In this document: in pieces, positions 5,870-63,139 of the stretch
Numbering within the stretch: the stretch's first letter is position 1
Layout: each line of letters opens with the position of its first letter
Assembly (NCBI GenBank): GCA_943356675.1
Contig: CALRFQ010000001.1
Coordinates: 4,147-68,146 of the forward strand
DNA: 64,000 nt
Direction of reading: 5' to 3'
Source of the DNA: Candidatus Nomurabacteria bacterium
GTDB lineage: Bacteria > Patescibacteriota > Minisyncoccia > Phycocordibacterales > UBA9973
Translations under genes and position numbers: made by a program
The notes under the pieces: generated by a model
What the model was told of the DNA's origin: nothing
What the model saw: the letters and a program-made list of their open reading frames with translations, nothing else
Databases searched by the model: none

Positions 5870-6796
5870 TTAACTTACACTTGCCATACCGGCACTAATT
5901 TCTGATATCTCCTGCGTGATCGACGCTTGGCGGGCTTTGTTGAATGCTAAGGTGAGGTCGTCTATCATTTCTCCTGCGGCTTCCGAGGCGTTCTTCATGG
6001 CTACCATTCGGGACGATTGTTCAGAAGCATTTGATTCAAGGAGCATTTGATAAATCTGCATTCGGGATAATTTCTCAGCTAAGCTTCCGATGAGTGCCTC
6101 TTGGTCGCCTTCGAAGGTGTAATCCGTTTTCCCTCTCTGGATAGAGGTCGAACCTCTATCTTCAGATAGAGGTTCGACCTCTATCTCTTCCACCAATTCT
6201 TTAATTTGCTCTTTTGATATTGGTAGGATTTGTTTGATATTTGGCTTTTGTGATAGAGCGGAAACGAAGTCGGTGTATGCTATTAAAATTTTATCGTATT
6301 TATTTTCTTTGTATTGGTCTACTACGAATTTCGATATCGGGACCACATCATTTAGATTTATATTGTCCGGCAATTCGGTGAATGTAGCAATGATATTCTT
6401 CCCTATTCTTCTCATTGCTGTGTCACCTTTCTTTCCGACTGTGACAAAATCAATTTTTGCATTATTTAAATTTACATCTGATGTTTTAAGGAGTGCCAAA
6501 ACCTTTTTTGTTACTTGCGCATTGTATGCTCCACAAAGTCCGCGGTTTGAAGTGATGAGGACAAGGAGCACATTTTTTACTTCGCGTTGAACGAATAGTG
6601 GATGTGTAATTTCCTGTGTACTATTTGCAATAGAAGTAAGAATCTCCCAAGAGTATCCAGCATATAGGCGGGATGCAAGTGTGGAAGAAACCGCGCGCTT
6701 CATCTTGGAAGCCGCCACGAGCTCCATAGCTTTCGTGATCTTTTTCGTGTTCTTCACACTCTTTATTCTTCTTTTGATTTCTTTTGTTCCTGCCAT
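5870..6796 (-). CDS. atpG: F0F1 ATP synthase gamma subunit (contains in-frame palindromic insertion)
   Basis: 308 aa; MAGTKEIKRRIKSVKNTKKITKAMELVAASKMKRA N-terminus and C-terminal SRMVAMKNASEAAGEMIDDLTLAFNKARQASITQEISEI. Confidence 0.9.
   Translation of the reverse strand: MAGTKEIKRRIKSVKNTKKITKAMELVAASKMKRAVSSTLASRLYAGYSWEILTSIANSTQEITHPLFVQREVKNVLLVLITSNRGLCGAYNAQVTKKVLALLKTSDVNLNNAKIDFVTVGKKGDTAMRRIGKNIIATFTELPDNINLNDVVPISKFVVDQYKENKYDKILIAYTDFVSALSQKPNIKQILPISKEQIKELVEEIEVEPLSEDRGSTSIQRGKTDYTFEGDQEALIGSLAEKLSRMQIYQMLLESNASEQSSRMVAMKNASEAAGEMIDDLTLAFNKARQASITQEISEISAGMASVS
6140..6185. repeat. 46-bp perfect palindromic unit (21 nt, TTCA, reverse complement of the 21 nt) in-frame inside atpG
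   Basis: GATAGAGGTCGAACCTCTATC TTCA GATAGAGGTTCGACCTCTATC. Confidence 0.8.
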
Positions 6797-12807: not shown

Positions 12808-12852
12808 AAAATAAAAAAAATACACTAACAGAAATGTTAGGGTATTTTTTTA
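12808..12852. terminator. bidirectional terminator between convergent genes
   Basis: A-run, CTAACA-GAAA-TGTTAG hairpin, T-run. Confidence 0.4.
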
Positions 12853-13824
12853 TTCCTCGTCTTCGGCTTCGCCTACGACTCCTGATGACATTGCGTCGAG
12901 GATTTTATCGATTTTGCCAGACATAATTCCGGGGATGTTGGACCATGATTGGCGGATACGGTGATCTGTAACGCGGTCTTGTGGGAAGTTGTATGTGCGA
13001 ATCTTCTCACTTCTATCCCCCGTTCCTATTTGGCCTTTGCGATCTGCAGAATATTTCTTGGCTTCTTCTTCATCCTTTAAGACTTGTAATTTTGCCATAA
13101 GGATAATCATAGCTTGCTCGCGGTTCCCAAGCTGGTTTCTCTCTGTAGTACATCTCACATCTATGCCTGTGGGTTTGTGGATAAGGCGCACTGCTGTCTC
13201 CACCTTGTTCACGTTCTGTCCGCCTGCACCTCCTGCTCGAGAATATTCCATATCAATATCAGCCGGATTGATTTCAATTTTAGATTTCTTACGGAGTGGA
13301 AGAATTGCCACTGATGCAGTGGATGTATGTATGCGCCCGTTCTTCTCAGTAGCGGGAATTCTCTGCACACGGTGCACGCCAGTCTCATATCGAAGTAGTT
13401 TATACACATCCTTACCTCTAATTTCAAAAGATGCTTCTTTGTATCCACCCACTTCATTCATAGATTCGTTTAAGGTTTTCGAAGACCAGCCCTTAGCTTC
13501 AGCATATAGCTCATACATATGTGCGAGCTCGTATGCGAAGAGTGACGCTTCGTCGCCTCCTGCACCAGCGCGAACTTCTAGAATTATTTCATTTGGAAAT
13601 TCTTCCTCCTCTTTTTCAGACTTTTGCATTTCTTCAATTTGGCGCTCCAAGCCTTCTTTTTGGAAAGTAATATTCTGAAGTTCTTCCACAGCGAGCTCTT
13701 TCATGCTCTCATCTTCTGCCACCATATCATTAATCTTCTTTTCTTCAGACAAAAGACGCTCGTATTCATTTGCGAGGTAGCTTGTCTTGTGATTCTTTTT
13801 TAATTCTTCTAAATCGAAGTTCAT
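12850..13824 (-). CDS. prfA: peptide chain release factor 1
   Basis: 324 aa; GGQ motif ([12 protein letters not shown]) and PAT tripeptide (RF1-type PxT). Confidence 0.9.
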
Positions 13825-13891
13825 ATATTTATTCTACCTCACCCCCTACCCCCTCTCCAAATTTTTCAAATTTAGCGAGGGGAAAAAGAAA

Positions 13892-14034
13892 ATCCCAAAT
13901 TAGTTCTTAAGAAATGCCTTGCGCAGAAGCTTAGAAAATAAATGAGGTAGTCTGATTACTATTTTCTTGAGCGACGAGCAGAGAAATTTTCTAAAAAGAA
14001 AATATTCGTGCATTTCGAGAGAAGCTAATTGGGA
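13892..14034. repeat. intercistronic inverted-repeat element, divergent member of the ATCCCRTTAG family (between rpmE and prfA)
   Basis: Arms AAAATCCCAAATTAGTTCTtaaGAAATGC (13889..13918) and GCATTTCGAGAGAAGCTAATTGGGATTTT (14009..14037), about 27/30 complementary. Confidence 0.6.
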
Positions 14035-14042
14035 TTTTATAG

Positions 14043-20566: not shown

Positions 20567-21571
20567 TTATTTTATAATTTCTTCTACTGCTTTTGTAATA
20601 CCCTTTACACCCATACCGTAGTGCTCTATAAGCTCTTCTGGCCTACCAGACTGGCCGAATAGGTCTTGCACTCCGATGAATGCCATCTTTGTAGGGTAAA
20701 CTTTTGCTAAGTATTCAGCAATTGCAGAGCCCATTCCTCCGGCCACTTGGTGCTCTTCTACTGTCACAATTTTATTGGTCTCTTTTGCAAGAGCAAGAAT
20801 CGCTTCTTCGTCGAGTGGTTTGATGGTTGCTAGGTTTAGAACCTTCACCTTAATTCCCTTCTCTTCTAAATCCTTCGCAGTTTTAATAGCATTGTGAAGT
20901 AGCGGCCCGCAAGCTACTATTCCAACGTCTGCATTTCCCTCTGGTGCAAATACTGTTTGCGCCTTTCCAATTTCAAATGGAGTATCTAGAGTAGTCATTA
21001 TAGGAGTCTTCTCACGAGCGAGGCGAAGGTATGTAGGCTCTTTCGTCTTCGCACATGCTATTGTCGCCTTCTTGGCCTCAATAGCATCACAAGGATAAAT
21101 AACAGTCATATTTGGAAGCACACGCGTAATAGCGATGTCTTCAATAGCTTGGTGGGTTCCACCATCAGGTCCTACAGATACACCTGCATGTGAGCCTACG
21201 ATTACTACCTTGCTATTATTGTAACAGCAAGTAGTACGTATCTGCTCCCAGCTACGTCCTGGAGAGAACATTGCATACGAAGATGTAAATGGAACTTTGC
21301 CCATTGCCGCCATTCCAGCTGCAACTGTGACTAGGTTCTGCTCAGAGATTCCCACTTGCACGAAACGCTCTGGGAATTTCTCTGCGAAAATATTCATCAT
21401 TGTAGATCCTGTAAGATCTGCACAAAGTGCAACCACATTCTTATCCGCCTCACCAGCTGCGAGTAGTCCCTCACCGAAACCTTTTCTTGTAGGCACTTGC
21501 TCTACATCCTGATCAAACATTTTGGTATTTAGTTTTAGGTTTGAATTAAGCATATTATTTTCCTTCTTCAA
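20567..21571 (-). CDS. transketolase, C-terminal subunit (pyrimidine-binding + C-terminal domains)
   Basis: 334 aa; split-transketolase arrangement, 17-nt overlap with the N-terminal subunit gene. Confidence 0.85.
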   Translation of the reverse strand: MKKENNMLNSNLKLNTKMFDQDVEQVPTRKGFGEGLLAAGEADKNVVALCADLTGSTMMNIFAEKFPERFVQVGISEQNLVTVAAGMAAMGKVPFTSSYAMFSPGRSWEQIRTTCCYNNSKVVIVGSHAGVSVGPDGGTHQAIEDIAITRVLPNMTVIYPCDAIEAKKATIACAKTKEPTYLRLAREKTPIMTTLDTPFEIGKAQTVFAPEGNADVGIVACGPLLHNAIKTAKDLEEKGIKVKVLNLATIKPLDEEAILALAKETNKIVTVEEHQVAGGMGSAIAEYLAKVYPTKMAFIGVQDLFGQSGRPEELIEHYGMGVKGITKAVEEIIK

Positions 21572-22448
21572 CTAGTTTGTAAAATGTTTTAAGTTCTAGG
21601 AGTGCGACTTCTGTTTGCTTATCTTTAGCGACTTTATCTGTCGGTCCAGATCCTGGAGGATTCCCATGCCAACGATAATCGTATTCAAATGGTGTGACAC
21701 CTTTACTTGCGATTGTGCGTGCAATGATACATGAAGGCTTGTCTGGAATAGCTTTTGCGCGGTTTATTGCATTGTTTATATCTTCTACATTGTGCCCATC
21801 TATTTCTTCTGCATGCCAGCCGAATTCCTCATACTTCTTCGCCATGTCACCAAGGGGGAGTACGTCTTCAGTATTTCCATCAATCTGGATATGGTTGCGG
21901 TCAACTATAGCAATTAAGTTTCCTAATTTTTCTTTACCAGCGAGGAGAACTGCTTCCCATATATTGCCTTCATCATGCTCACCGTCTCCCATCACGCAGT
22001 AGAAGAACTTGCCAGAATTTCTGCCATGATCCATATTCTCAGCGATAGCCATACCGACTGCTTGTGAGAGTCCAGAACCAAGTGGCCCTGAAGAAGTCTC
22101 TACCATTGGTAGGAATTCGCGGTGAGGGTGGCCTTGTAGTCTTGATCCTAATTTTCTGAGAGTTAATAGTTCTTCAACAGGAAAATATCCAGAGTGCGCC
22201 ATTGCAGCATACATAACAGGGCAAATGTGGCCTGCGGAAAGTATAAAGCGATCACGACCCTCCCAGAAAGGCTCCGATGGATTGTGATTTAATTGATGAA
22301 AATAAAGCACAGCAAATACATCTGCCATATCAAGCGGTCCGGCAGTGTGGCCACTCTTCGCCTCTGTAAGCATTTCAATGATACTGATGCGGATTTTTGT
22401 CGCTAGTAATTTGAGTGTTTTGATTTTTTCGTCTGTAAGATTTTCCAT
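21555..22448 (-). CDS. transketolase, N-terminal subunit (TPP-binding)
   Basis: 297 aa; GHxxxxL...GDG(E)xxEG TPP-binding motif (VMGDGEHDEGNIWEA). Confidence 0.85.
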   Translation of the reverse strand: MENLTDEKIKTLKLLATKIRISIIEMLTEAKSGHTAGPLDMADVFAVLYFHQLNHNPSEPFWEGRDRFILSAGHICPVMYAAMAHSGYFPVEELLTLRKLGSRLQGHPHREFLPMVETSSGPLGSGLSQAVGMAIAENMDHGRNSGKFFYCVMGDGEHDEGNIWEAVLLAGKEKLGNLIAIVDRNHIQIDGNTEDVLPLGDMAKKYEEFGWHAEEIDGHNVEDINNAINRAKAIPDKPSCIIARTIASKGVTPFEYDYRWHGNPPGSGPTDKVAKDKQTEVALLELKTFYKLVEEGK

Positions 22449-22557
22449 CCCGTTAGAAGCAGATCGCGATCACTCGCTTCTTACTTGTTAAGTTATTAAT
22501 ATTTATTATATTTGTTTTCATGTTGTTTAATTTCGCGATCGCGGCTTCTAACGGGAT
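22447..22557. repeat. 111-bp intercistronic inverted-repeat element, family A copy 1 (rpe / tkt)
   Basis: Terminal IRs ATCCCGTTAGAAGC (22447..22460) and GCTTCTAACGGGAT (22544..22557), AT-rich centre. One arm contains the rpe stop codon and the other ends in the AT of the tkt start codon. 46 nt are identical to copy 2. Confidence 0.8.
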
Positions 22558-29607: not shown

Positions 29608-30657
29608 TTAAAAAGATAGTGCGATTATTACACCAAGACTTGTGGTGATAATACTGACGACCCAGTAACGCATTGTTACTTTATATTTTGGCCATCCTAG
29701 AGCCTCGAAGTGATGATGCAGTGGTGCTACAAGGAAAACTTTCTTCCCATTACGAAACTTTCTTGAAAGCATTTGAATAATACTAGATAGTGATGTGATA
29801 AATAGTGGGAATGCAATTATTGGTAGTAGAAGTACTGTGTTTGTAAGGAATGCAATCACGGAAATAGTCACAGTAAGGCCAATCATTCCGGTCTCACCCA
29901 TATAGAATCTCGCAGGAGGAATATTGAACCATAGGAATGCGAGTATTCCTGAAGCCACAACTGCACAGAAAGCAGATAGGTCATACTGACCATTTCCAAA
30001 TGCAATCACAGCGTAACCCGCGAATATGGAAGCAAGCACTCCACCTGAGAGGCCGTCGATTCCGTCAATCACACTCGATGAGAATACAGCAAGCATAATG
30101 ATTATAAAAAATGGCAAGAATAAAATGCCAAGAGTGAAAAATCCAAATCCTGGCACAAACACATAATCAATTCCTAGTTTTGAGTAGAACCACCAACCGA
30201 TAATTATTCCGAGCGATACTATGATTCCAATTTTGAGCCAACGAAGGAACATTGGGTCATTTGAAAATCTTCCAGTTGCAAAAATTTGAATAAAATCATC
30301 ACCGAGCCCTATAAGCGATGCAATGATGAGAGTGAAAAATGGAAGTAAGGTTTCTTTACGAGAAATAAAGTTCAAATTATTCTCAACAGAGCTTCCCCAA
30401 AAAATACCTATAATCCAAATCAATAGTAGTGAAAAAATTACTGAAATCCAAACAATCATACCACCAACTCTAGGTGTATGAAGCTCACTATTCTCATCGT
30501 GAATAGCGTGGAATGCTGGCTGAGTGCCAGTACTAGCCCTCGATACTCTACGCCAGAGCTTGTATTTATAAAAGTAGTGTGTGAATACTGGTGTAAGAGA
30601 AATGCCAGACACGAAGCACAAAATAACCGGCACTAAAATTTTTATTGCATTACTCAT
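29608..30657 (-). CDS. mraY: phospho-N-acetylmuramoyl-pentapeptide transferase
   Basis: 349 aa polytopic; HTPRVGGM and DGIDGLSGG motifs. Confidence 0.8.
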   Translation of the reverse strand: MSNAIKILVPVILCFVSGISLTPVFTHYFYKYKLWRRVSRASTGTQPAFHAIHDENSELHTPRVGGMIVWISVIFSLLLIWIIGIFWGSSVENNLNFISRKETLLPFFTLIIASLIGLGDDFIQIFATGRFSNDPMFLRWLKIGIIVSLGIIIGWWFYSKLGIDYVFVPGFGFFTLGILFLPFFIIIMLAVFSSSVIDGIDGLSGGVLASIFAGYAVIAFGNGQYDLSAFCAVVASGILAFLWFNIPPARFYMGETGMIGLTVTISVIAFLTNTVLLLPIIAFPLFITSLSSIIQMLSRKFRNGKKVFLVAPLHHHFEALGWPKYKVTMRYWVVSIITTSLGVIIALSF

Positions 30658-31210
30658 TGATATTATTTTCTTGATTTGTAATTGCTTTCTCGAGCTCTTC
30701 CACTACTTCTTTGTATTTAGGAAGCATGGTGATGTCGCTGACTCCCATAAATAGAAGTAAATCAATTGTAGGTGTGTATATAAATCTACGAGAGTCGGTA
30801 GCGTCTACCTTTTTATCAATTAATCCGCGTATGAGTAAGTTGCGGAGAATAAAACTAGAATTAACACCACGAATATAATCAATTTCATTTCTTGTTACTC
30901 CATTCTTATCAGGACCATTTTTATATAAAATAATTGAGAGTGTTTCAAGTGTTGCCTTCGATAATTCTTTAGTAATTTCATCTTTCCTCAATTTCTCAAG
31001 GAAAATACTTGCCTCTTTATTTGTGCCTAGAGTTACTTCGTTCTCAGTTTTAATTATTGTAAGACCCGTGCCTTCCTTCTTGGTACTAAGTGTATCAAGA
31101 GAAGCTACTACTTCTTCAATACTTACTTCCAAAATCTCTGCAATCTTTTTGATTGCAACTGGTTCACCTTTAAAGAAAAGTAATGCTTCAATTTTTGCGT
31201 CTAGTTCCAT
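30650..31210 (-). CDS. scpB: segregation and condensation protein B
   Basis: 186 aa; tandem winged-helix pattern, ALLFFKGEPVAIKKIAE. Confidence 0.8.
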   Translation of the reverse strand: MELDAKIEALLFFKGEPVAIKKIAEILEVSIEEVVASLDTLSTKKEGTGLTIIKTENEVTLGTNKEASIFLEKLRKDEITKELSKATLETLSIILYKNGPDKNGVTRNEIDYIRGVNSSFILRNLLIRGLIDKKVDATDSRRFIYTPTIDLLLFMGVSDITMLPKYKEVVEELEKAITNQENNINE

Positions 31211-31319
31211 CCCGTTAGAAGCAGATCGCGATCACTCGCTTCTTACTTATTAAACTATTAATTTTAATTTTATAAATTTTCATCATGTGTGTTTACGTGA
31301 TCGTGGCTTCTAATGGGAT
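31209..31319. repeat. 111-bp intercistronic inverted-repeat element, family A copy 2 (scpA / scpB)
   Basis: ATCCCGTTAGAAGC at 31209..31222 and GCTTCTAATGGGAT at 31306..31319. Positions 31205..31250 are identical to 22443..22488. The distal arm lies inside the scpA 3' coding end. Confidence 0.8.
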
Positions 31320-32082
31320 CCATACCTGTCATATTAATATCTTCAAAATTACTATTTTGAACAACATCAATTATTCCCTCTCTGACTAATTCTAGCATAG
31401 CAAGGAATGAAACAATAACATTCACTCTAACTTCCCTCTCACTACTATCAGGGCTACTCATTGAAAAGTCCTTAAACGACATATTTAATGATTTTTGAAT
31501 TCTGTTTGTAAGACGGTCTATCATTTCCTCAATATTTATGACAGTTTTTACTTCTACTTCTGGCAGTGGTATAGCTTTCTTCGGTAAACTTATAAGTACA
31601 TCATTTATGGCATTACTTAGCGTCTCAACCGTCAGAATTTGGTCTGGGCTAAAGATTACATTGTCCCACTTTCGCTCTGGTGCTGAGAAAATTATTTTTG
31701 TACCGAAATTACTCTTGATATCAACGCTAGCATTTTTAATGATTTGATAGAGTCTTAGTCTTGATTCAAGATCTTCAATTTTATCTTCTTCATCGTCTGT
31801 GAGTTCTAGGTTTGGAAGTAGTGATTTGGATTTGATCAGTATGAGTGTTGCGGCGATAACAATAAAGTAAGATATGTCGTGAATTTTTTTGTCGATAGAA
31901 ACATCTTCGGAATTATTACTCTGAAGACTTTTAATATATGAAATATATTCACTTGTAACTTCAGCAAGAGAGATTTCGTTGACAAATAACTTCCTACTTT
32001 CGATGAGTGAGAGAAGCAGCTCAAGTGGCCCCTCGAATGAGCCAGACTTAACTTTATATGTTTGTATAGTATTCTCTTCCAT
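31270..32082 (-). CDS. scpA: segregation and condensation protein A
   Basis: 270 aa; FEGPLELLLSLI motif; C-terminal 16 aa are encoded by the repeat arm. Confidence 0.8.
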   Translation of the reverse strand: MEENTIQTYKVKSGSFEGPLELLLSLIESRKLFVNEISLAEVTSEYISYIKSLQSNNSEDVSIDKKIHDISYFIVIAATLILIKSKSLLPNLELTDDEEDKIEDLESRLRLYQIIKNASVDIKSNFGTKIIFSAPERKWDNVIFSPDQILTVETLSNAINDVLISLPKKAIPLPEVEVKTVINIEEMIDRLTNRIQKSLNMSFKDFSMSSPDSSEREVRVNVIVSFLAMLELVREGIIDVVQNSNFEDINMTGMDPIRSHDHVNTHDENL

Positions 32083-36161: not shown

Positions 36162-36168
36162 TTATGGC

Positions 36169-36287
36169 TCCCGTTAGAGATGTGCTGTTCATATGTTTGT
36201 TAAATGTTAAATATAGATTATAGTGTATATATTAATTATTAGTTAATAAGAAACGGAAGTCTAAAGACTTCCTATCTCTAACGGGAT
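36169..36287. repeat. 119-bp intercistronic inverted-repeat element, family A copy 3 (dnaB / recR)
   Basis: TCCCGTTAGAGAT at 36169..36181 and ATCTCTAACGGGAT at 36274..36287 ending in the AT of the recR ATG. Inner hairpin GGAAGTC-TAAA-GACTTCC. Interior carries TTGTTA-N16-TATAGT. Confidence 0.8.
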
Positions 36288-36906
36288 GGACCCGATAAAT
36301 ATTCTCGCAGAAAAATTTAAGGAATTCCCAGGTATTGGTGAACGCCAAGCAAAGCGTTTCGTGTATTTTCTGCTTCATAAAAATCCTAGCTTCGTAAAAA
36401 TACTCGGCGAGGCAATCATTTCTATTAAAAGCCAGATTGCCGAGTGTGAATCTTGCCACATATTCTTTCAAATAAAACCTCATCAGGATAAGCTCTGTGA
36501 GACTTGCGCAAATCCTCAAACTGATCAATCTTCCCTACTTATCGTCGAGAAGGATGCAGATATGGAGACCATAAAGCGCACGAAGACATATAAAGGATTA
36601 TATTTTGTACTTGGTGGTCTTGTACCTATAGTGACTAAGGATACTCCTACTTTTGTTCGCACAAACGAACTTCAAGCTGTTGTAAAAGACCGTATTAAGA
36701 ATAAAGTTCTAAAGGAAATTATATTAGGTCTTTCTATTAATCCTCACGGTGAACATACAGATTTATATCTACGTGAATTACTCCACCCACTTATAGAAAA
36801 CACAAATGTTAGAATTGTATCTTTAGGTAAAGGCCTCTCCACAGGCACTGAGCTCGAATACTCCGACTCCGAAACTATCAAAAACGCTCTCAAAAACCGC
36901 GGCTAA
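36286..36906 (+). CDS. recR: recombination protein RecR
   Basis: 206 aa; HhH FPGIGERQAKR, C4 zinc finger CESCH...CETC, Toprim LIVEKDADME. Confidence 0.85.
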   Translation: MDPINILAEKFKEFPGIGERQAKRFVYFLLHKNPSFVKILGEAIISIKSQIAECESCHIFFQIKPHQDKLCETCANPQTDQSSLLIVEKDADMETIKRTKTYKGLYFVLGGLVPIVTKDTPTFVRTNELQAVVKDRIKNKVLKEIILGLSINPHGEHTDLYLRELLHPLIENTNVRIVSLGKGLSTGTELEYSDSETIKNALKNRG

Positions 36907-36910
36907 TCCC

Positions 36911-36930
36911 CGCCTAGGTCGGACCTAGGC
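36911..36930. repeat. GC-rich palindromic hairpin CGCCTAGGTC-G-GACCTAGGC (family B copy 1) right after the recR stop
   Basis: 9-10-bp perfect arms; near-identical copy at 47446..47466. Confidence 0.7.
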
Positions 36931-42770: not shown

Positions 42771-43661
42771 ATGGTAGATTCAATAATTAATACAAAGAAA
42801 ATTGAAGACGCAGATGTAGTGATACTCTCTGCAGCATATGAGAAGACTGCATCTTCTAGGAAAGGCACAGCGACTGGCCCAAAAGCAATTATTAAAATGC
42901 TCACCAGCAAGCTTGAGCTTTTCGATCGTAACTACAAGAAGAATGTATCAGAGTTTGTAAAAATTGCCGAGAAAGATTCTGGAAATATTAGCGTCCTAAC
43001 TCCAAAGAAAGCTCTAGATAAAATTACAGCGGAATCAAGAAAGATTTTAGAGAAAAATAAATTCGTTTTCCTTCTTGGTGGCGAGCACTCAGTATCTCTC
43101 GGATTGCTAACTGCACTTAAAGAAAATTGGGATCCAAAGGATGTGACAGTGTTACAAATAGACGCGCACTGCGACCTACGCAATGACGACTCTGATTATA
43201 ACGATGACCCTACAAATTTGGCCCATTCTTGCGTTCTAAGACGTGTAAACGAGCTTGGCTACCCTCTCGTACAAGTTGGAATTCGCACATACTACAAGGG
43301 AGAATATGAATACTTCTCAAATCCAAAGAATAATGTAAAAACATTTGAATGGGGCGCTGGTAAAAAGGTGCCATCGGTGGACGAAGTCTTGAAATCTATA
43401 AAGACAAAGAATGTATATATCACTATAGACGTGGACGGCTTCGACCCTGCCTATATGCCAGGCACTGGCACACCAGTGCAAGGAGGCCTAGAGTGGTGGT
43501 ACGGAGTAGAACTCATCGAGAAAGTAATAAAATCAAAGAACTTAATCGGCGCAGATATCGTAGAAGTGGCTCCACAAAAAGAATCAGTCCTTACTGAATA
43601 CGGCGCCGCTCAGCTTCTTTACACTATGATTGCTCACAAATTTCGAAATAAACTTAAATAG
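42771..43661 (+). CDS. speB: agmatinase (ureohydrolase family)
   Basis: 296 aa; GGEHS, DAHCD, IDVDGFDPAYMPGTGTP Mn-binding motifs. Confidence 0.8.
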   Translation: MVDSIINTKKIEDADVVILSAAYEKTASSRKGTATGPKAIIKMLTSKLELFDRNYKKNVSEFVKIAEKDSGNISVLTPKKALDKITAESRKILEKNKFVFLLGGEHSVSLGLLTALKENWDPKDVTVLQIDAHCDLRNDDSDYNDDPTNLAHSCVLRRVNELGYPLVQVGIRTYYKGEYEYFSNPKNNVKTFEWGAGKKVPSVDEVLKSIKTKNVYITIDVDGFDPAYMPGTGTPVQGGLEWWYGVELIEKVIKSKNLIGADIVEVAPQKESVLTEYGAAQLLYTMIAHKFRNKLK

Positions 43662-43667
43662 AAATAA

Positions 43668-43707
43668 TAAAATCCCACATGTCATACATGTGGGATTTTA
43701 TTATTTT
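43668..43707. terminator. bidirectional rho-independent terminator
   Basis: AAAATCCCACATGT-CATA-CATGTGGGATTTT perfect 11-bp stem. Confidence 0.7.
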
Positions 43708-43710
43708 ATA

Positions 43711-44730
43711 TTAAGCTGAGTATTTTTCGATTAGTTTATTTGCTTCTGCGGGATTTGCTTTCATTTCAAGTAGTGCTGTGAGCATAAGAGGCACAACGAT
43801 TGTGGCATCGGACTCCACGACGAACATTGGAGTGTCTTTTGTGAGCTTGTCCCAAGTGATCTTTTCATTTGGAGTAGCACCTGAGTATGATCCGTATGAA
43901 GTAGTTGAGTCTGAAATCTGACAGAAGTATGCCCAAGGCTTAACTTCTTGCTCCATATCGTATTTAAGTGATGGCACTACGCATATTGGGAAGTCTCCAG
44001 CGATACCTCCACCGATTTGGAAGAAGCCAATTCCCTCTCCCTCAGAAAGCTTTTGGTATTGGTCATAAAATTCTCCCATGTATTCGATACCACTCTTTGC
44101 GATAGAAGCTGATGCATCTCCATGCTTTACGTGAGATGCGAAAATGTTTCCAAATGTTGAGTCTTCATATCCTGGAACTACTATTGGTATGTTGTTCTCA
44201 GCTGCAGCAAGTAGCCAGCATTCTTCTGCTTTACCTTCATGCTTATCTTTATCGATAGCTTGAATCAAGTCATAGAAGTACTCATGCCAGAATTTGCGAG
44301 TGCCATTCTTTGTAGCTTCTTCCCAAACTGGCACAATGTGTTTCTCCACAGCGCGGAAAGCTTCATCTTCAGGGATACTTGTGTCTGTAACGCGGCGCAT
44401 ACGATTCTCGAGTATCTTTGTGTCATCCTCTTTTGTGAAGTATCTGTAATCTGGAAAATCTTTGTATGAATCATGAGCAACGAGGCGGAAAAGTGATTCC
44501 TCAAGGTTCGCACCTGTGACAGACATACCACTGATAAGTCCTGCGCGGATAGCTGGGGCAAGCACGATACCAAGCTGTGCAGAAGACATAGCTCCAGCTA
44601 CCGCCCAAAACATCTTGCCTCCTTTTTCTGCATGGCGCCAGTAAGCGATAAGCGCATCGCGAGTAGCACGAGCATTGAAGTTCTTGTAATTTTTTAATAT
44701 AAATTCTAATGTGTTTAAATTATTTTGCAT
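43711..44730 (-). CDS. deoxyhypusine synthase-like protein (possible homospermidine/spermidine-forming aminobutyl transferase)
   Basis: 339 aa; N-terminal Rossmann region MFWAVAGAMSSAQLG...MSVTGANLEESLF aligns with the DHS-family TSNLISSGLR...VTTAGGVEED. Confidence 0.65.
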   Translation of the reverse strand: MQNNLNTLEFILKNYKNFNARATRDALIAYWRHAEKGGKMFWAVAGAMSSAQLGIVLAPAIRAGLISGMSVTGANLEESLFRLVAHDSYKDFPDYRYFTKEDDTKILENRMRRVTDTSIPEDEAFRAVEKHIVPVWEEATKNGTRKFWHEYFYDLIQAIDKDKHEGKAEECWLLAAAENNIPIVVPGYEDSTFGNIFASHVKHGDASASIAKSGIEYMGEFYDQYQKLSEGEGIGFFQIGGGIAGDFPICVVPSLKYDMEQEVKPWAYFCQISDSTTSYGSYSGATPNEKITWDKLTKDTPMFVVESDATIVVPLMLTALLEMKANPAEANKLIEKYSA

Positions 44731-44833
44731 CCCGTGTGAAATTTATTAATTAAGTAATATTGTAATTATAGCGTAATTTAACTTTTTGTACATTCCAAAT
44801 AGATTTATAGTTATTATAAATTTCTATCGGGAT
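44729..44833. repeat. 105-bp intercistronic inverted-repeat element, degenerate family A copy 4 (decarboxylase / DHS-like)
   Basis: ATCCCGTGTGAAATTTAT (44729..44746) and ATAAATTTCTATCGGGAT (44816..44833). One arm starts with the AT of the DHS-like ATG and the other ends at the decarboxylase stop codon. Confidence 0.6.
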
Positions 44834-46212
44834 TACCAGCCGAAGTTCTTACCCACCTCATCTGGAGTTTCTCTCTTACGTGCTACTACGATGTGTCCAT
44901 TCTCAGCCACGATCTTAAGTGGTGAAGAAAGCATACAGTGGTGTGCAGCGAGTGGGTCTTGGTATGCACCAGTATCGAGCACAGCTATATACATAGGCTC
45001 TCCATCATTCATATCGTAGTCTGGAAGTGTTACAGAGCCATGCACTCCTGTATAAATATCATCAGAATCACAAGATGACCCTGCTAGCCAAACATCCTGT
45101 AATTTATCATCGCGCTTATTATTTAGTGGAATCACAGACCATTTCTGCCCGATAGCCCAAGTATCGAGAAGGTCATTCATGAAGCTACCATCTATCACAT
45201 ACCACTTCTTGGCGTCAGCCTTTTTGCTTGAGATAAGTTTACTATCAATAATTTTAAAGATTGTGATTTGCGCTGGTGCTACTATGTAGCGGCCCCACTC
45301 ACACACGAGGTTTGGATGTGGCATTCCGCGCTTCTCAGACTCCTTCACAATAAGTGTGAAAATCTTATCCATCAATTTATCCACTGGGTAGCTACGATTG
45401 CGAGTGTAAGGGATAGGCATTCCTCCACCAATGTCGAGAGTATCAAGAGATGGATTCTTTTCTTTCACCTTGAAGTACACATCGAGTGCGTATTTTATCG
45501 GGCCGATCACATCAGAAAGCTTCTCAATCTGAGAGCCTATGTGGTAGTGAATTATTTTCAAATTCTTAAAGCTTCCCATATCAATGATCTCCTTTGCAGA
45601 AAATCCGAAGCGGTCTATCGGCTTGTTCCAGTACGAAGCAGCCTTCACTGGCATGTCTAGGCGGATACCCACATCATACTTTGAGTGCTGAAGGAATTTG
45701 AGCTCATTTGGGCCTTCAATAAGTGGGAAGATTTTCACACCTTTGTGCTGTAGATCGTCGATGAGGTTTATGTATTTGTCTGTCTTAGGACCTGAGCAGA
45801 GTATGCGGATGTTTGGGTTGAAAGATTCTTGCTCAAGCATCTTCTTCACGAGCCAGAGGTCGTTGAAAGATGAAGTCTCGAGATGAGCACCTTCAGATAC
45901 CATAGCCATAACCACTTCTTTATTTTGGTTCACCTTCATTGGGTAGTGGTAGAAGAACTTACCTTTATAACCTACTTTCTTTGAAAGTTGGAATGACAAG
46001 TCTAGGAAGTCCTCAATTCTTTCCTCAATAATGAATGGAAAAAGGATCTCAAGAGATGTGCCCATCTTCTCAGCTAAATAACGAATGTTGTAAATATTAT
46101 TTCCTTCTTTTACTACAAGGTCACCGTCTTTATTAAAGTCGAAATATTGTGTATTCCAATCTTTAGATCCGAGCTTCCATAATTTTCGGGAAGCAGATAC
46201 ATTTTTGTGCAT
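44833..46212 (-). CDS. PLP-dependent Orn/Lys/Arg decarboxylase (fold III), likely arginine decarboxylase
   Basis: 459 aa; HIGSQ and GGG-loop motifs; neighbour of agmatinase. Confidence 0.65.
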   Translation of the reverse strand: MHKNVSASRKLWKLGSKDWNTQYFDFNKDGDLVVKEGNNIYNIRYLAEKMGTSLEILFPFIIEERIEDFLDLSFQLSKKVGYKGKFFYHYPMKVNQNKEVVMAMVSEGAHLETSSFNDLWLVKKMLEQESFNPNIRILCSGPKTDKYINLIDDLQHKGVKIFPLIEGPNELKFLQHSKYDVGIRLDMPVKAASYWNKPIDRFGFSAKEIIDMGSFKNLKIIHYHIGSQIEKLSDVIGPIKYALDVYFKVKEKNPSLDTLDIGGGMPIPYTRNRSYPVDKLMDKIFTLIVKESEKRGMPHPNLVCEWGRYIVAPAQITIFKIIDSKLISSKKADAKKWYVIDGSFMNDLLDTWAIGQKWSVIPLNNKRDDKLQDVWLAGSSCDSDDIYTGVHGSVTLPDYDMNDGEPMYIAVLDTGAYQDPLAAHHCMLSSPLKIVAENGHIVVARKRETPDEVGKNFGW

Positions 46213-46376: not shown

Positions 46377-47348
46377 TCAATCAATGAAGTTGTTAAATAC
46401 CCAAAATGATCTCTCATTATACGGACAAACCTTACAATTAACAGCTTGGATACTGTCACAAGTACAATCTCTTACCATGCTAGGAATAATTAAATACTCT
46501 TCCGGCATATCCTCAACCAACTTGGCTATATCCTTGTAAACAAGATCCATGAGCTTATTTTTCGTTACAGCAATAGGAAAGAAATTATTATTGCGACAAA
46601 ATTCGAGTCTCATGTGAACTAATGTGGATGCGATGTTGTACTCACGAAATTCATTATCAACATAAACTCCAAACAGTTCTACTAGTTGTCGTTGCTTAAA
46701 GTTTGCAATAGCACCACTCTCAACAACATGTTTTTTAATTCCACCGGCTCCAACGATCCTGTTGTTTACTAACGCAAACACTGCGCAGATTGAATCATTC
46801 TTTAGATCATTGGTACTTCTATTTAAAAGATTCACTTCAGTTTCAGTTCTTTTTGACCACCAGTATAGAATTTCTTCCAACCTAGCGTTTTGAGTTTTGA
46901 AATTTGTGTAAATAAGATACTGAACCTTATCGACATTTTTAGTGATAAATTTGCGTGGATTAATATTCACAGAAAATTTTAGAGCAAATTCTCGATTTCT
47001 CGAATGAAGAACTGTTACCACGAAATGCGGCTTAAAGAAGGATTGCGCACTACGAGTAATGTGATTAATGAATGCGTTTGAATCATAATATCTCGGGTCA
47101 GTTATGATATCAGGATAGAGCTTGGTAATAGGTAATTTCTCTATTTCAACATCCCATTTTTTAATCAAACCACGTCCATTACTGTACTTAGGGTTCATTA
47201 ACTCTTCTACAATCGATTCAGGTGTAAAATTTTTTTTCGCCTGTTCAAACGTTTCGAGCCAAATTTTTGACTCATTATTATTCTCATTTAGGTGTGAAGA
47301 AATTTCACTCAGAATAACATTTTTAGGGGCTAGTAATCTTGTTGGCAT
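46377..47348 (-). CDS. hypothetical protein with possible GNAT-like C-terminal half and Cys-rich tail
   Basis: 323 aa; IVGAGGIK ... ELFGVYVDNEFREYNIASTLV weakly GNAT motif-A-like; CTCDSIQAVNCKVCP tail. Confidence 0.4.
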   Translation of the reverse strand: MPTRLLAPKNVILSEISSHLNENNNESKIWLETFEQAKKNFTPESIVEELMNPKYSNGRGLIKKWDVEIEKLPITKLYPDIITDPRYYDSNAFINHITRSAQSFFKPHFVVTVLHSRNREFALKFSVNINPRKFITKNVDKVQYLIYTNFKTQNARLEEILYWWSKRTETEVNLLNRSTNDLKNDSICAVFALVNNRIVGAGGIKKHVVESGAIANFKQRQLVELFGVYVDNEFREYNIASTLVHMRLEFCRNNNFFPIAVTKNKLMDLVYKDIAKLVEDMPEEYLIIPSMVRDCTCDSIQAVNCKVCPYNERSFWVFNNFID

Positions 47349-47445
47349 AAATATATTGGTTTTTGATTTTAGAACTATAATATACTATTCTCACCAAAAC
47401 ACAATATGTGGATAAAGTAAAACACCCTTTCGGGTGCCTTATCTC

Positions 47446-47466
47446 CGCCTAGGTCGGACCTAGGCG
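47446..47466. repeat. GC-rich palindromic hairpin CGCCTAGGTC-G-GACCTAGGCG (family B copy 2) right after the dnaJ stop
   Basis: Perfect 10-bp arms; followed on the minus strand by a GCACCC-GAAA-GGGTG-TTTT terminator (47411..47436). Confidence 0.7.
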
Positions 47467-47467
47467 C

Positions 47468-48586
47468 TTATATTCCCTCTTTTTTAAGATCTTCGAGGAG
47501 TTCTTTTGATTTCTTTGAGAGCTTCGTTGGCATCTTTATTTGGATGCGGAGAATGATGTCGCCACGGCGAGACATACTGCCACCTTGAGGCACGCCTTTG
47601 CCTCGCACACGTAGGAGCTCACCATGATTCACACCTTCAGGGATTGTGACGTCCATATCACCATCAAGAGTCTTCAGTTTATATTCAAAACCGAGGATTG
47701 CATCTGTGAGCTTGATCGGCAAATCCATAATCAAGTTTGAACCATCGCGTCTGTAAATTGAATGCGGCTTCACATTTACTTTTATGTATAGGTCGCCAGT
47801 TTGGCCATGAGAGATTGCTTCACCTTTGCCAGTCATTCTTATCATCTCGCCATTATTTATGCCTGCTGGGATTGCGATGCTAATGTCTTCCTGCTTATTG
47901 TGCACGCCTTTGCCTTTACACTCACTGCATTTCTCATTTGGAATTTTCCCTGCGCCGTGACAATGCTCACACACACGAGCAGTTTCGAACGTGCCGAGGA
48001 TTGAACGCTTCATCTCACGCACCTGGCCTTTTCCATTACAAGTTTTGCAAGTGTCCATCTTGGTGCCAGCTTTCGCTCCGCTACCACTACAAGTATCGCA
48101 TGTGGACTGCTTACTAATGAGCACAGAGCGCTTCACGCCGAAAATTGACTCCTCAAAGGAAATATCTATCTCTGTAGAAATATCGCGTCCACGGGCCTGC
48201 TGGCTTCTTCCACGGCCACCCATGCCTCCACCTCCGAAAAATTCTCCGAAGATATCGCCAATGTCGCCCATATCAAACTCCACTCCGCCTCCTTGCTGGA
48301 AGCCAGAGAAATCAAATCCTCCGAAGCCTCCTGCACCTTGATTGAATCCGCCGTATCCTTGACCTCCGCCCATATTTGGGCCGGCACTTCCGAATCTATC
48401 GTACTGAGCACGCTTGCCATCGTCCGATAGGGTCTGATAAGCCTCGTTCACTTCTTTGAACTTCGAATCATCACCCTTATTTTTATCAGGATGGTATTTA
48501 TGCGCGAGTTTATGATAGGCCTTTTTCATTTCGTCCTTACTCGCACCTTTATTTACACCCAATATTTCGTAGTAATCTTTTGCCAT
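47468..48586 (-). CDS. dnaJ: chaperone DnaJ
   Basis: 372 aa; J domain with HPD, G/F-rich linker, four CxxCxGxG repeats. Confidence 0.9.
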
Positions 48587-61948: not shown

Positions 61949-63139
61949 CTATTTTACCACACCACCACCCAAGCAAATATCTTTATCGTATAGAACCACT
62001 GATTGCCCGCTTGCAAGTGCACCATCTGGCTTTTCAAATTTAATTTTTATTTCGTTTCCATTAACTTCAAGAATTTCAACTTTAAGAATTTCGCCATGGT
62101 AGCGAACTTGTGCTAAATATTTTTGCCCAATTTTAATATTTCCACGAATAACGGCATTTGTAAGTGTGACAAATTCATTATTTTTTTTATTTAAATCTTT
62201 ATCATGTGACACAATAAGGGTATTGTTATTTATATCTTTGGCCACGATGTAGTAAGGTGTATCGTTTGGTGTGGTCTTTATGATAGTAAATCCATGTCTT
62301 TCACCAAGTGTGTATAAGAGGACTCCATCGTGAGTGCCTATCTCTTCCCCATCCTCTGTTACCACATTTCCACTGCGCACATTTATGTAATGCTTAAGGA
62401 AGTCCTTCATATCAAGTGGGCCGAGGAAGCACACACCTTGCGAATCTTTCTTTGTAGCTGTCGGTAGATTATATTTTTCTGCCAATTTCCGTACTTCACT
62501 TTTTTTCATATGACCAATAGGAAAAAGTGTATGGGAAAGATCTTCTTCTGTAAGTGTCCAGAGAAAATATGATTGATCTTTTGTAGTATCTTGTGAGCGG
62601 AAAAGAAAATAGTTTTTCGATGCCTCCGCAGGCGCGTAGCTTGGTGTCGTCAAGAGTACTTCTCTTGACGACGAAGCGCCGAGGACTAAGCGAGGACTCC
62701 GCAGGAGCGGCTGAGCGGGCTGAGAAGAATTATTTTCTTTTCCGCTCACAACAGCATAGTGCCCAGTGGCAATAAAATCTGCACCATGCTCTTTTGCAAA
62801 TTTCCAAAAGACACCAAATTTCACTTCGCGATTACACATTACATCAGGATTTGGAGTGCGTCCTTCTTTATATTCTCTTATCATATAATCCGCCACGCCA
62901 CGCTTGTATGCATCTTCTGCATCACACTCAAGGAATGGCACATCTAGTGCTGCACACACCCTCATAGCATCACGCCTTTCATCTTTCCAAGTGCATTCTA
63001 TAAAGTCTGGAGTCCAAGTACGAATAAACACACCGACTACATTGTAGCCAGCTTCTTTAAGAATCGCTAAAGAGACAGAGCTATCAACCCCACCCGAGAC
63101 TCCTACAAATACAGTTTTATTTATCACTTTTCTCTTCAC
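61949..63139 (-). CDS. mnmA: tRNA-specific 2-thiouridylase MnmA (contains in-frame GC-rich palindromic insertion)
   Basis: 396 aa; PP-loop SGGVDSS, catalytic Cys (CNREVKF, GVCFLG), DQSYFL motif. Confidence 0.85.
   Translation of the reverse strand: MKRKVINKTVFVGVSGGVDSSVSLAILKEAGYNVVGVFIRTWTPDFIECTWKDERRDAMRVCAALDVPFLECDAEDAYKRGVADYMIREYKEGRTPNPDVMCNREVKFGVFWKFAKEHGADFIATGHYAVVSGKENNSSQPAQPLLRSPRLVLGASSSREVLLTTPSYAPAEASKNYFLFRSQDTTKDQSYFLWTLTEEDLSHTLFPIGHMKKSEVRKLAEKYNLPTATKKDSQGVCFLGPLDMKDFLKHYINVRSGNVVTEDGEEIGTHDGVLLYTLGERHGFTIIKTTPNDTPYYIVAKDINNNTLIVSHDKDLNKKNNEFVTLTNAVIRGNIKIGQKYLAQVRYHGEILKVEILEVNGNEIKIKFEKPDGALASGQSVVLYDKDICLGGGVVK
62595..62747. repeat. 153-bp GC-rich palindromic element inserted in-frame in mnmA
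   Basis: 24-bp terminal IRs GAGCGGAAAAGAAAATAgTTtTTC / GAAgAAtTATTTTCTTTTCCGCTC. Internal perfect palindrome GTCGTCAAGAG-TACT-CTCTTGACGAC. About 60% GC against about 35% background. Both strands translate to SGKEN...SSR(E)VLL(L)TT...KNYFLFRSQ. Confidence 0.8.

Follow-up and report, generated by a model that had tools for sequence, protein, structure and literature searches.

A short mobile DNA hairpin that probably inserts at and rebuilds ATG start codons in Patescibacteria

Correia elements (NEMIS/CREE) of Neisseria are non-autonomous elements of ~100-155 bp that have terminal inverted repeats, create a short target duplication and fold into hairpins. They occur in many copies, often co-transcribed with their neighbours, duplicate TA, lie at variable distances from genes and are associated with IHF sites, promoter parts and RNase III cleavage. 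We know of no cognate transposase for them. The repeats of this study were found in a stretch of 64,000 nucleotides (hereafter the window) of contig CALRFQ010000001.1 from a Candidatus Nomurabacteria bacterium. The window has a G+C content of 39% and a coding density of ~92%, and its contig was also found in ENA and NCBI assemblies (groundwater-type metagenomes). Five loci of the window had initially been annotated as sharing one inverted-repeat architecture. Three, and probably four, of them are read here as copies of a mobile DNA hairpin of ~110 bp that probably inserts exactly at ATG start codons. With Correia elements, these copies share the size class, the inverted-repeat ends, the short duplication, the hairpin and the multicopy state. 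Different from Correia elements, however, in the present family it is TGRR of the start codon that is duplicated and ATG is rebuilt, its termini are unrelated in sequence and its hosts are Patescibacteria.

Other palindromic repeats resemble the family in part. Similar to it, ERIC and YPAL elements are imperfect palindromes (~127 bp) in transcribed intergenic regions, including those between cistrons, and the hairpin of ERIC alters mRNA fate. However, ERIC targets TA and is not tied to gene starts, and neither start regeneration nor a relic ATG has been described for it. Nor was any sequence similarity to the present family found: in Rfam searches of the whole window at gathering thresholds, tRNA alone passed, and searches with the region of the first copy at E values up to 10 identified no family, the best match scoring 22 bits against a gathering score of 65. 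Rickettsia palindromic elements (RPE) are likewise selfish palindromes of ~100-150 bp that are tolerated in the gene space of small, streamlined genomes, but they lie in frame inside open reading frames (ORFs) and are translated into protein. REP/REPIN sequences and the PATEs of IS200/IS605 are also hairpin-based, non-autonomous and mobilised in trans, with a conserved fold and a short target that is entered in one orientation. They differ from the present family in that they make no target duplication, are organised as REP doublets with GTAG or as separate left and right hairpins, and have RAYT or TnpA partners. A literature search, which included the terminal sequences, retrieved no description of the family, nor of an element that lands on and restores start codons. 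The family is of a known kind, that of bacterial palindromic elements resembling MITEs (miniature inverted-repeat transposable elements); what is new is its target, the start codon, and its translation footprint.

Copies in the window and their empty sites

The copies (c1 to c4) and the sites associated with them are given below. R1 and R2 are covariance models; R1 was built from 67 members of the family, 114-123 nt long and taken from other genomes, and R2 from 33 elements of the 97-112-nt size class. ATG1 denotes the relic ATG of the target, which is found directly before the left arm.

22448..22556, minus strand: c1, type A, TCCCGTTAGAAGC...GCTTCTAACGGGA, 109 nt, between rpe and tktN (R1 89.3 bits, E 1e-17)
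22446..22448, minus strand: rebuilt start of tktN, composed of the element's last A and the target's TG (ORF 21555-22448 is Transketolase_N; relatives start with ATGGAA at the same residue)
22548..22550, minus strand: rpe stop TAG within the left arm of c1 (from the sequence and the ORF list)
31210..31318, minus strand: c2, type A, 109 nt, between scpA and scpB (R1 81.8 bits, E 6e-16; 83.5% identical to c1)
31319..31323, minus strand: relic target ATGGA (ATG1) of c2, in frame in the scpA tail (filled site ATGGA[element]TGGAAC versus a single ATGGAAC in the empty site)
31208..31210, minus strand: rebuilt start of scpB (ORF 30650-31210 is SMC_ScpB; the N-terminus of relatives is identical)
36169..36286, plus strand: c3, type B, 118 nt, between dnaB and recR (R1 68.4 bits, E 5e-13)
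36255-36272, plus strand: local hairpin GGAAGTC-TAAA-GACTTCC of c3, beside the gene-proximal arm
36164..36168, plus strand: relic target ATGGC (ATG1) of c3, one substitution from ATGGA, which opens an upstream ORF (uORF) of 19 codons into the element (filled versus empty site)
36286..36288, plus strand: rebuilt start of recR (ORF 36286-36906 has RecR domains)
44730..44832, minus strand: c4, probable decayed copy, TCCCGATAGAAATTT...AAATTTCACACGGGA, 103 nt, between a decarboxylase gene and a deoxyhypusine-synthase-like (DHS-like) gene (R2 21.5 bits, E ~0.06; its last A plus TG is the DHS start)
880-1015 of locus L262 (JGI Ga0606628_0000977) and 1-25 of locus L261, both outside the window: type A copies at the recR start codon

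The homology of c1 and c2 spans their whole length, and each measures 109 nt from TCCC to GGGA. They share an exact run of 44 nt (22443-22486 = 31205-31248), which is shorter than the 46 nt first reported, as position 45 is a mismatch. c3 has the 10-nt termini TCCCGTTAGA and TCTAACGGGA and the 13-bp terminal stem in common with them; its core differs. The exact 14-mer ATCCCGTTAGAAGC occurred three times in the window and once more with one mismatch, and looser matches were at chance level. A scan for the termini revealed a large family in other genomes, and in a covariance-model search, of the kind that the initial annotation had suggested, c1, c2 and c3 were recovered by R1 in the sense orientation with 89, 82 and 68 bits, respectively (E 1e-17 to 5e-13), compared with 34-41 bits in the antisense orientation (c1, 41 bits). 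Their predicted RNA folds were also stronger than those of shuffled sequences, with -39.8 kcal/mol (z -7.2) for c1, -31.3 kcal/mol (z -4.1) for c2 and -41.8 kcal/mol (z -5.6) for c3.

The flanking genes, as assigned by Pfam, are rpe and tktN at c1, scpA and scpB at c2, dnaB and recR at c3, and an ornithine/arginine decarboxylase gene and the DHS-like gene at c4. The gene-proximal arm of each of the four copies ends with ...CGGGA and is followed by TG, so that, as originally noticed, the arm completes the start codons of the tktN, scpB, recR and DHS-like genes. Also as noticed, the upstream stop codon lies within the arm of c1 (rpe) or abuts the element (TAA of the decarboxylase gene at c4), and the distal arm of c2 has been absorbed into scpA, whose ORF runs 46 nt into c2 and ends with ...MDPIRSHDHVNTHDENL* inside its core.

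c4 scored only 12.1 bits (E 1.9) with R1. With R2, it scored 21.5 bits at an E value of ~0.06, which is a rough figure; this match was full length, in the sense of the gene and ended at the DHS start, and the next noise match scored 14.3 bits. The fold of c4 is weak (-15.8 kcal/mol, z -1.1), and its length and arm type fit a 102-nt AAATT subfamily. Judged by its sequence, c4 is thus a plausible and probable decayed family member. The remaining locus of the initial annotation, 13892-14034, was rejected as a family member, as it was missed by R1 as well as R2 and adjoins no start codon. It belongs to an unrelated hairpin of 150 nt (13889-14038; arms AAAATCCCAAWTTAG.../...CTAATTGGGATTTT; -39.1 kcal/mol, z -5.0), which occupies the spacer upstream of the gene for the release factor at 12850-13824. 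The terminal motif of this hairpin occurred once in the other 262 loci (L040).

Comparison of orthologous junctions, another of the suggested checks, revealed empty sites and target duplications at the junctions of c1, c2 and c3. All three were empty in relatives whose flanking proteins were 91-96% identical to those of the window; each empty site possessed a single ATGGA, and the genes there were 0-12 nt apart. At rpe/tktN, the relative L125 (TktN 95% identical) reads ...CAAAATTTATAATTAT|ATGGAAAATC and the window ...CAAAATTTA[element]TGGAAAATC. The same junction was also empty in four more distant relatives (L126-L129), where the gene starts with ATGGA. Relative to the empty site, c1 lacks 8 nt (TAATTATA, i.e., the original rpe stop and the A of ATG), hence its relic ATG is lost. 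At scpA/scpB, the site was empty in L135-L139 (ScpB 96%, 85% and 76% identical), which read ...TAATAT|ATGGAACTAGAC or equivalent, compared with ...CAGGTATGGA[element]TGGAACTAGAC in the window, where ~25 nt just upstream of c2 are missing. The sequences lost at c1 and c2 included the stop codons; as a consequence, the TAG in the arm of c1 now terminates rpe, and scpA terminates inside the c2 core. At dnaB/recR, L260 (RecR 91% identical) reads ...TTTTAATT|ATGGACCCG and the window ...TTTTAATTATGGC[element]TGGACCCG; in short form, the filled site is TTAATTATGGC[element]TGGACCCG and the empty one TTAATTATGGACCCG. By its sequence, c3 is a clean insertion with a target duplication and one later substitution.

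The start codon of recR in L262 (RecR 83% identical) and L261 (85%) holds a type A element, which is a sibling of c1 and c2 (last 38 nt identical), whereas that of the window holds type B. Different types at one start codon indicate independent hits by two subfamilies. The rpe/tkt and scpA/scpB sites of the L262 contig were empty. This sibling was found via its RecR homologue; an exact 31-nt probe for siblings of c1 and c2 had no match in the metagenome collection. The element is thus present in some and absent from other close relatives, and it is mobile.

The family in other genomes and its target

A scan for TCCCRTTAGA-N75-105-TCTAAYGGGA, with one genome per species, identified at least 120 loci. 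Among the 120 matches listed, ~92 were from Patescibacteria according to their record titles, including Saccharibacteria, Paceibacteria/Parcubacteria lineages, Kaiser-, Nomura-, Wolfe-, Yanofsky-, Levy-, Kerfeld- and Doudnabacteria, Kazan and others. Fifteen were unlabelled, and 13 had other labels (Omnitrophota, Planctomycetota, WOR-3, Elusimicrobia, Desulfobacterales and 'Gammaproteobacteria' bins). Another scan, which used a 24-nt end of type A, identified at least 120 metagenome loci. The elements ranged from 67 to 283 bp, most being ~100-125 bp (97-125 nt), and have no coding capacity of their own. Three or four copies were found in the 64-kb window, and several other loci had two or three. 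Moreover, tandem arrays in L102, L019 and L021 share a TGAA repeat (GGGA-tgaa-TCCC), as expected if a rebuilt ATGAA is hit again. In viral contigs of IMG/VR, no element of the 95-125-nt class was found. Five contigs classed as viral (L130-L134) had shorter elements of 70-94 nt with the same termini; two of these had the ATG junction, and L132 had an atgaa...tgaa repeat together with a nested small palindrome.

Junctions were compared for 135 copies, of which 132 were from other genomes and three from the window. The terminal A of the element and the adjacent TG form an ATG in 125 copies, and 118 of these rebuilt ATGs begin an ORF of 60 codons or more. On the other side, a relic ATG was found at -5 in 91 of the 125 copies. 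An exact direct repeat of 4 bp was found in 86 (TGAA, 49; TGGA, 18; TGAG, 14), and the typical flanks are atgaa-TCCC...GGGA-tgaa. In 82 of the 86 copies the repeat was TG plus two purines, but among the gene starts of the window ATG is followed by two purines in only 52%, suggesting a preference for the DNA motif ATGRR instead of any start codon. The shared ATGGA(A) of c1 and c2, which had been taken for copied gene sequence, is accordingly the preferred target sequence. In the type A subfamily, which is homogeneous in sequence, matching repeats were found in 67 of 112 copies (TGAA in 38, TGGA in 20, with TGAG also seen). Since the repeats vary and yet match on both sides within this one subfamily, they are derived from the target, i.e., they are target-site duplications, and are not carried by the element. 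A lineage-fixed repeat, i.e., a recombination core carried by the element, was also considered and was rejected: clustering of repeats within genomes was weak (17 of 31 pairs the same versus 11.2 expected, p ~0.025), and many genomes were mixed.

These junctions show that the element inserts at A|TGRR of the start codon, after which TGRR is found on both sides. The final A of the element turns the downstream copy of the target into ATGRR, so that the gene keeps its start codon and its N-terminus; the upstream copy stays as the relic ATG. One of the two initial hypotheses was that of a MITE-like element that targets intercistronic junctions and donates a start codon. The essentials of its mobility, namely empty sites, direct repeats and multiple copies, were found. 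However, the target is the start codon (ATG and two purines) and not intercistronic junctions as such, and ATG is not simply donated but regenerated by the target duplication plus the terminal A. A co-directional upstream ORF ended within 30 nt of the element or inside it in 62 of the 125 copies, and for 36 of the 125 no co-directional ORF of 80 or more codons ended inside the element or within 150 nt upstream of it.

Stem structure, translation and mode of insertion

The ends of the element are near-perfect inverted repeats, composed of TCCCGTTAGA plus three variable nucleotides on one side and three variable nucleotides plus TCTAACGGGA on the other. They form a terminal stem of 13 pairs, or of 14 pairs, as in the consensus fold, when the U of AUG is counted as paired to the repeat's final base. 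Watson-Crick pairing was found at each of the 13 stem positions in 115-125 of 125 copies. The arms were also found to covary, as the initial annotation had suggested checking: positions 11-13 (AU/GC/UA/CG) had 27-31 double changes among 67 sequences. Such covariation fits either a required fold or one protein that recognises both ends. In type A (c1 and c2), the stem is extended through an asymmetric internal loop, arm-C-GCGRTCGC ... GAYCGCGAYC-T-arm. In type B (c3), a local 7-bp hairpin lies beside one arm and itself covaries (GGAAATC/GATTTCC, GGTCGTC/GACGACC).

A translation footprint was found in the frame of the relic ATG. The core was free of stops in this frame in 40 of 125 copies, compared with 8-21 copies in the other five frames. 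Among the copies with an intact relic ATG, 33 frames were open up to the right arm versus 8.8 expected from shuffles. For 25 of these 33, the stop is the TAA in TCTAACGGG, which precedes the AUG by 4 nt (UAAcgggAUG), and for eight it is a TGA that overlaps the second ATG (ATG2; AUGA). None of the 18 copies with a length modulo 3 of 2, which would fuse the frame to the gene, was open; different from RPE, the in-frame class of the present family is thus depleted and never open, and the gene product is unchanged. The pattern was similar in the type A metagenome set, where 16 of 58 frames were open. Lengths that are multiples of three were over-represented in the genome set (58:43:24 for the classes modulo 3), an excess that the type A metagenome set (36:29:29) lacked. 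The peptides encoded from the relic ATG share only arm-encoded residues (MNPVR...), suggesting that any selection is on the passage of ribosomes and not on a product. Shine-Dalgarno-like motifs were not enriched before ATG1 (13/91 versus 10/91 in the control), and none was found at a useful distance before the rebuilt ATG.

In the folded model, positions -13 to +1 would be covered by the stem, and these belong to an initiation region for which a lack of structure is probably needed. Entry of ribosomes into the left arm is predicted for all three of c1, c2 and c3, via the rpe and scpA reading frames and the uORF, respectively, and forms the basis of the hairpin melting and reinitiation considered here. 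The excess of open frames hints at both, as statistical support rather than proof. A purely functional analogy can be drawn with translational bypass (T4 gene 60; 'byp' of Magnusiomyces mitochondria) and with the hairpin-bridged split ribosome-binding sites of T4 genes 25 and 38. In bypass, a hairpin-forming insert flanked by matching codons is also neutralised at translation. Known bypass, however, takes place inside ORFs and needs take-off and landing of peptidyl-tRNA, whereas two start codons are present here and uORF termination-reinitiation or hairpin melting would be the likely route.

Taken together, we consider it likely that the loci represent copies of a mobile element, MITE-like and non-autonomous, that inserts at, and rebuilds, start codons. 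The family has the small size, the terminal inverted repeats, the target duplication of fixed length and variable sequence, and the multiple copies with presence/absence polymorphism by which MITEs are recognised. Duplication of TGRR favours staggered double-strand cuts of the DDE type over single-strand mechanisms of the IS200/IS605 or REP type. The element would be moved in trans by an enzyme that recognises the 10-nt termini and cuts with a 4-bp stagger. In the window, 37 ATGRR motifs are at gene starts, 28 are non-coding and 486 are inside genes; insertions at the ~13-fold more numerous intragenic sites would be lethal, which would leave survivors almost only at starts, where copies would be removable by precise excision only. 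With less certainty, the sequence immediately upstream of the rebuilt AUG would be hidden within the mRNA hairpin, and ribosomes coming from the relic AUG, or from the upstream cistron in the case of c1 and c2, would translate into the left arm and melt the stem. Termination, often at the UAA 4 nt before the rebuilt AUG or at the overlapping UGA, would then permit reinitiation in organisms without Shine-Dalgarno signals.

Several observations weigh against this reading. No autonomous copy and no transposase was found in ~260 fetched loci, and no pair of termini more than 300 bp apart enclosed an ORF there; the search of these loci for solo termini and long-range pairs retrieved only decayed ends and variants of 192-283 nt. 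Similarly, a Pfam scan of 30 ORFs of the window identified no transposase, recombinase or integrase domain. Starts hold 118 of 125 copies, compared with ~57% expected if any ATGRR is hit and only intragenic hits are purged, so that a putative extra bias in targeting or retention is needed. Part of this excess may be retention, in that start copies are lost only by precise excision and intergenic copies decay in deletion-biased genomes. Moreover, the orientation of the element to the gene is biased despite its symmetrical termini, type A being forward in 94 copies and reversed in 3, which is unexplained; among pairs of elements with similar cores, 24 had the same and 6 the reversed orientation. 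Also unexplained are 7 of the 135 copies, in which (A)CTTG or CCTG takes the place of ATGRR on the left, and similar junctions found elsewhere. As to translation, only about one third of the relic-ATG frames are open to the right arm and about two thirds stop early, and ~20% of the copies have no predicted translation entering the element. Finally, no strand-specific excess of G.U pairs was found in the stem (17 versus 10; 7 versus 8), i.e., selection on the sense RNA hairpin was not demonstrated.

The bias in orientation is among the features that movement as single-stranded DNA would explain. An HUH/Y1-type enzyme, as for the IS200/IS605 PATEs and the REPINs of REP/RAYT systems, would insert the element in one orientation guided by a short motif, and the target is indeed short (4-5 nt) and asymmetric, with 94 versus 3 copies in one orientation. 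A conserved hairpin that contains either an asymmetric internal loop or a local hairpin in subterminal position would also suit such an enzyme, the two arms would be expected to covary if the fold is recognised, and no DDE partner was found. HUH elements of the IS200/IS605 type, however, are known not to duplicate their target, whereas TGRR matches on both sides of the present elements and varies within one subfamily. In addition, the termini constitute one long terminal inverted repeat instead of two separate subterminal hairpins, and neither TnpA nor RAYT genes were seen close to the copies in the 8-kb loci, in which no systematic search for them was made. We therefore regard an HUH/Y1-type mechanism as unlikely.

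The second initial hypothesis was a structured device for translational coupling. A host regulatory RNA for such coupling or for attenuation that evolved in place at operon junctions and is inherited vertically without mobility is improbable. The strong predicted hairpins (z -4 to -7), the co-directional arrangement of all gene pairs in the window, the upstream stops of c1 and c2 within the element and the open-frame signal are what such an RNA would produce. Nevertheless, none of the three junctions holds an element in relatives whose proteins are 91-96% identical and whose genes adjoin closely there; one site, at recR, is occupied by different subfamilies depending on lineage; near-identical copies lie beside unrelated genes and are flanked by direct repeats; and 36 of the 125 copies lack a co-directional upstream ORF of the size and distance given above. 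The insertion polymorphism refutes an origin as a host RNA, and only a secondary, co-opted function could survive. What persists of the coupling idea is statistical and concerns the family as a whole, in which the relic-ATG frame is open 3-4 times more often than by chance.

A wider account can be put forward only tentatively and is itself somewhat doubtful. A selfish family spread across Patescibacteria would home to start codons and remain silent through the rebuilt ATG together with melting and reinitiation by ribosomes that enter from the relic start codon or the upstream cistron. Its persistence would exploit, and could tune, initiation that is independent of Shine-Dalgarno signals, and the orientation bias and the excess occupancy of starts would reflect a targeting step that senses gene starts instead of a 5-nt motif only. 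If the description of the family holds, it explains recurrent contig breaks, mis-called gene starts and N-terminal extensions in genomes of the Candidate Phyla Radiation. It would also mean that streamlined genomes of ~1 Mb with few insertion sequences still carry an active repeat family. Furthermore, hundreds of natural 'experiments' would be available on start finding without Shine-Dalgarno signals, each with a hairpin right before AUG and with or without an entering frame, and the conserved 10-nt termini would point to a widely distributed candidate DNA-processing enzyme.

An invertible promoter switch (inverton) that controls the downstream gene is very improbable. Inverted repeats of at least 13 bp do enclose an AT-rich core directly upstream of genes, cores in both orientations were found in some subfamilies (6 of 30 related pairs) and promoter-like hexamers are present. 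At the level of assemblies, however, 11 same-site pairs from independent assemblies all had the same orientation and no candidates for inverted sites were found; type A points one way in 94 of 97 copies; and neither presence/absence polymorphism nor direct repeats are features of invertons. The -10-like hexamers occurred in 91 elements on each strand (72 expected from shuffles) without a preferred position. A directional promoter in the core was rejected on the same grounds, and the good promoter initially reported for the core of c3 is thus without support from the family.

Hardly any credence can be given to integron attC-like sites that mark cassette boundaries. The size (attC, 57-141 bp), the imperfect palindrome, the position between co-directional genes and the likeness of GTTAGA/TCTAAC to the core motifs GTTRRRY/RYYYAAC invite the comparison, but the order of the motifs is inverted (attC, 5'-RYYYAAC...GTTRRRY-3'; element, 5'-GTTAGA...TCTAAC-3' on both strands), the neighbours are syntenic housekeeping genes (rpe-tkt, scpA-scpB, dnaB-recR) instead of cassettes, empty sites differ by the element alone and no integrase was found among the scanned ORFs of the window. 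An assembly chimera behind the identity of c1 and c2, which the initial annotation had named as a possible refutation and which two Logan contigs that end inside the shared segment might suggest, is excluded, as c1 is identical in the independent assemblies ENA ERZ28612979 and NCBI GCA_965047985.1, such contig breaks are typical of a true repeat, a sibling copy is found in L262 and hundreds of family members are found elsewhere.

Variant members and other repeats of the window

Some members of the family varied in their termini or length (L089, 433-511; L121, 3883-4165; L100, 1251-1482; L115, 2264-2344). Compensated terminal variants were CCCC...GGGG, with which the rebuilt start becomes GTG, and TCAC...GTGA. 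Variants in length included longer elements of 192-283 nt and shorter ones of 67-85 nt. The left flank was ACTTG in L027, L033, L070, L098 and L108 and CCTG in L050 and L091, and it was similar in L010, L017 and L063; only TG is repeated in these copies. Several of them have a TATAAT-like box 10-15 nt upstream, and they could be a second target class (TTG starts?) or result from recurrent loss of 2 nt. In addition, about a quarter of the elements (L005-L124, L140-L259) contain an internal YGGGAW motif at a preferred position, which lies 20-39 nt away from their gene-distal end. Pairing of this motif with the left terminal TCCCR might give an alternative local hairpin, or the motif might serve as a third binding site for protein; it is missing in the copies of the window.

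The window also contains other repeats. A G+C-rich, hairpin-forming sequence of 28 nt, CTAATCCCCGCCTAGGTCGGACCTAGGC, is repeated with 93% identity at 36903-36930, just after recR, and at 47438-47465, between ORFs 46377-47348 and 47468-48586. Possible readings are a terminator common to both places and a small repeat of the REP-like kind. A perfect inverted repeat of 22 nt with a 2-nt spacer, GATAGAGGTCGAACCTCTATCT / AGATAGAGGTTCGACCTCTATC, lies at 6140-6185 within the ORF of the ATP synthase gamma subunit (5870-6796). Another inverted repeat at 62591-62751 has 45-nt arms that are 80% complementary and 71 nt apart, and is within or beside ORF 61949-63139. Finally, the genes around c4 are part of a compact polyamine cluster (42771-46212), which contains arginase-family (agmatinase-like), deoxyhypusine-synthase-like and ornithine/arginine decarboxylase genes.

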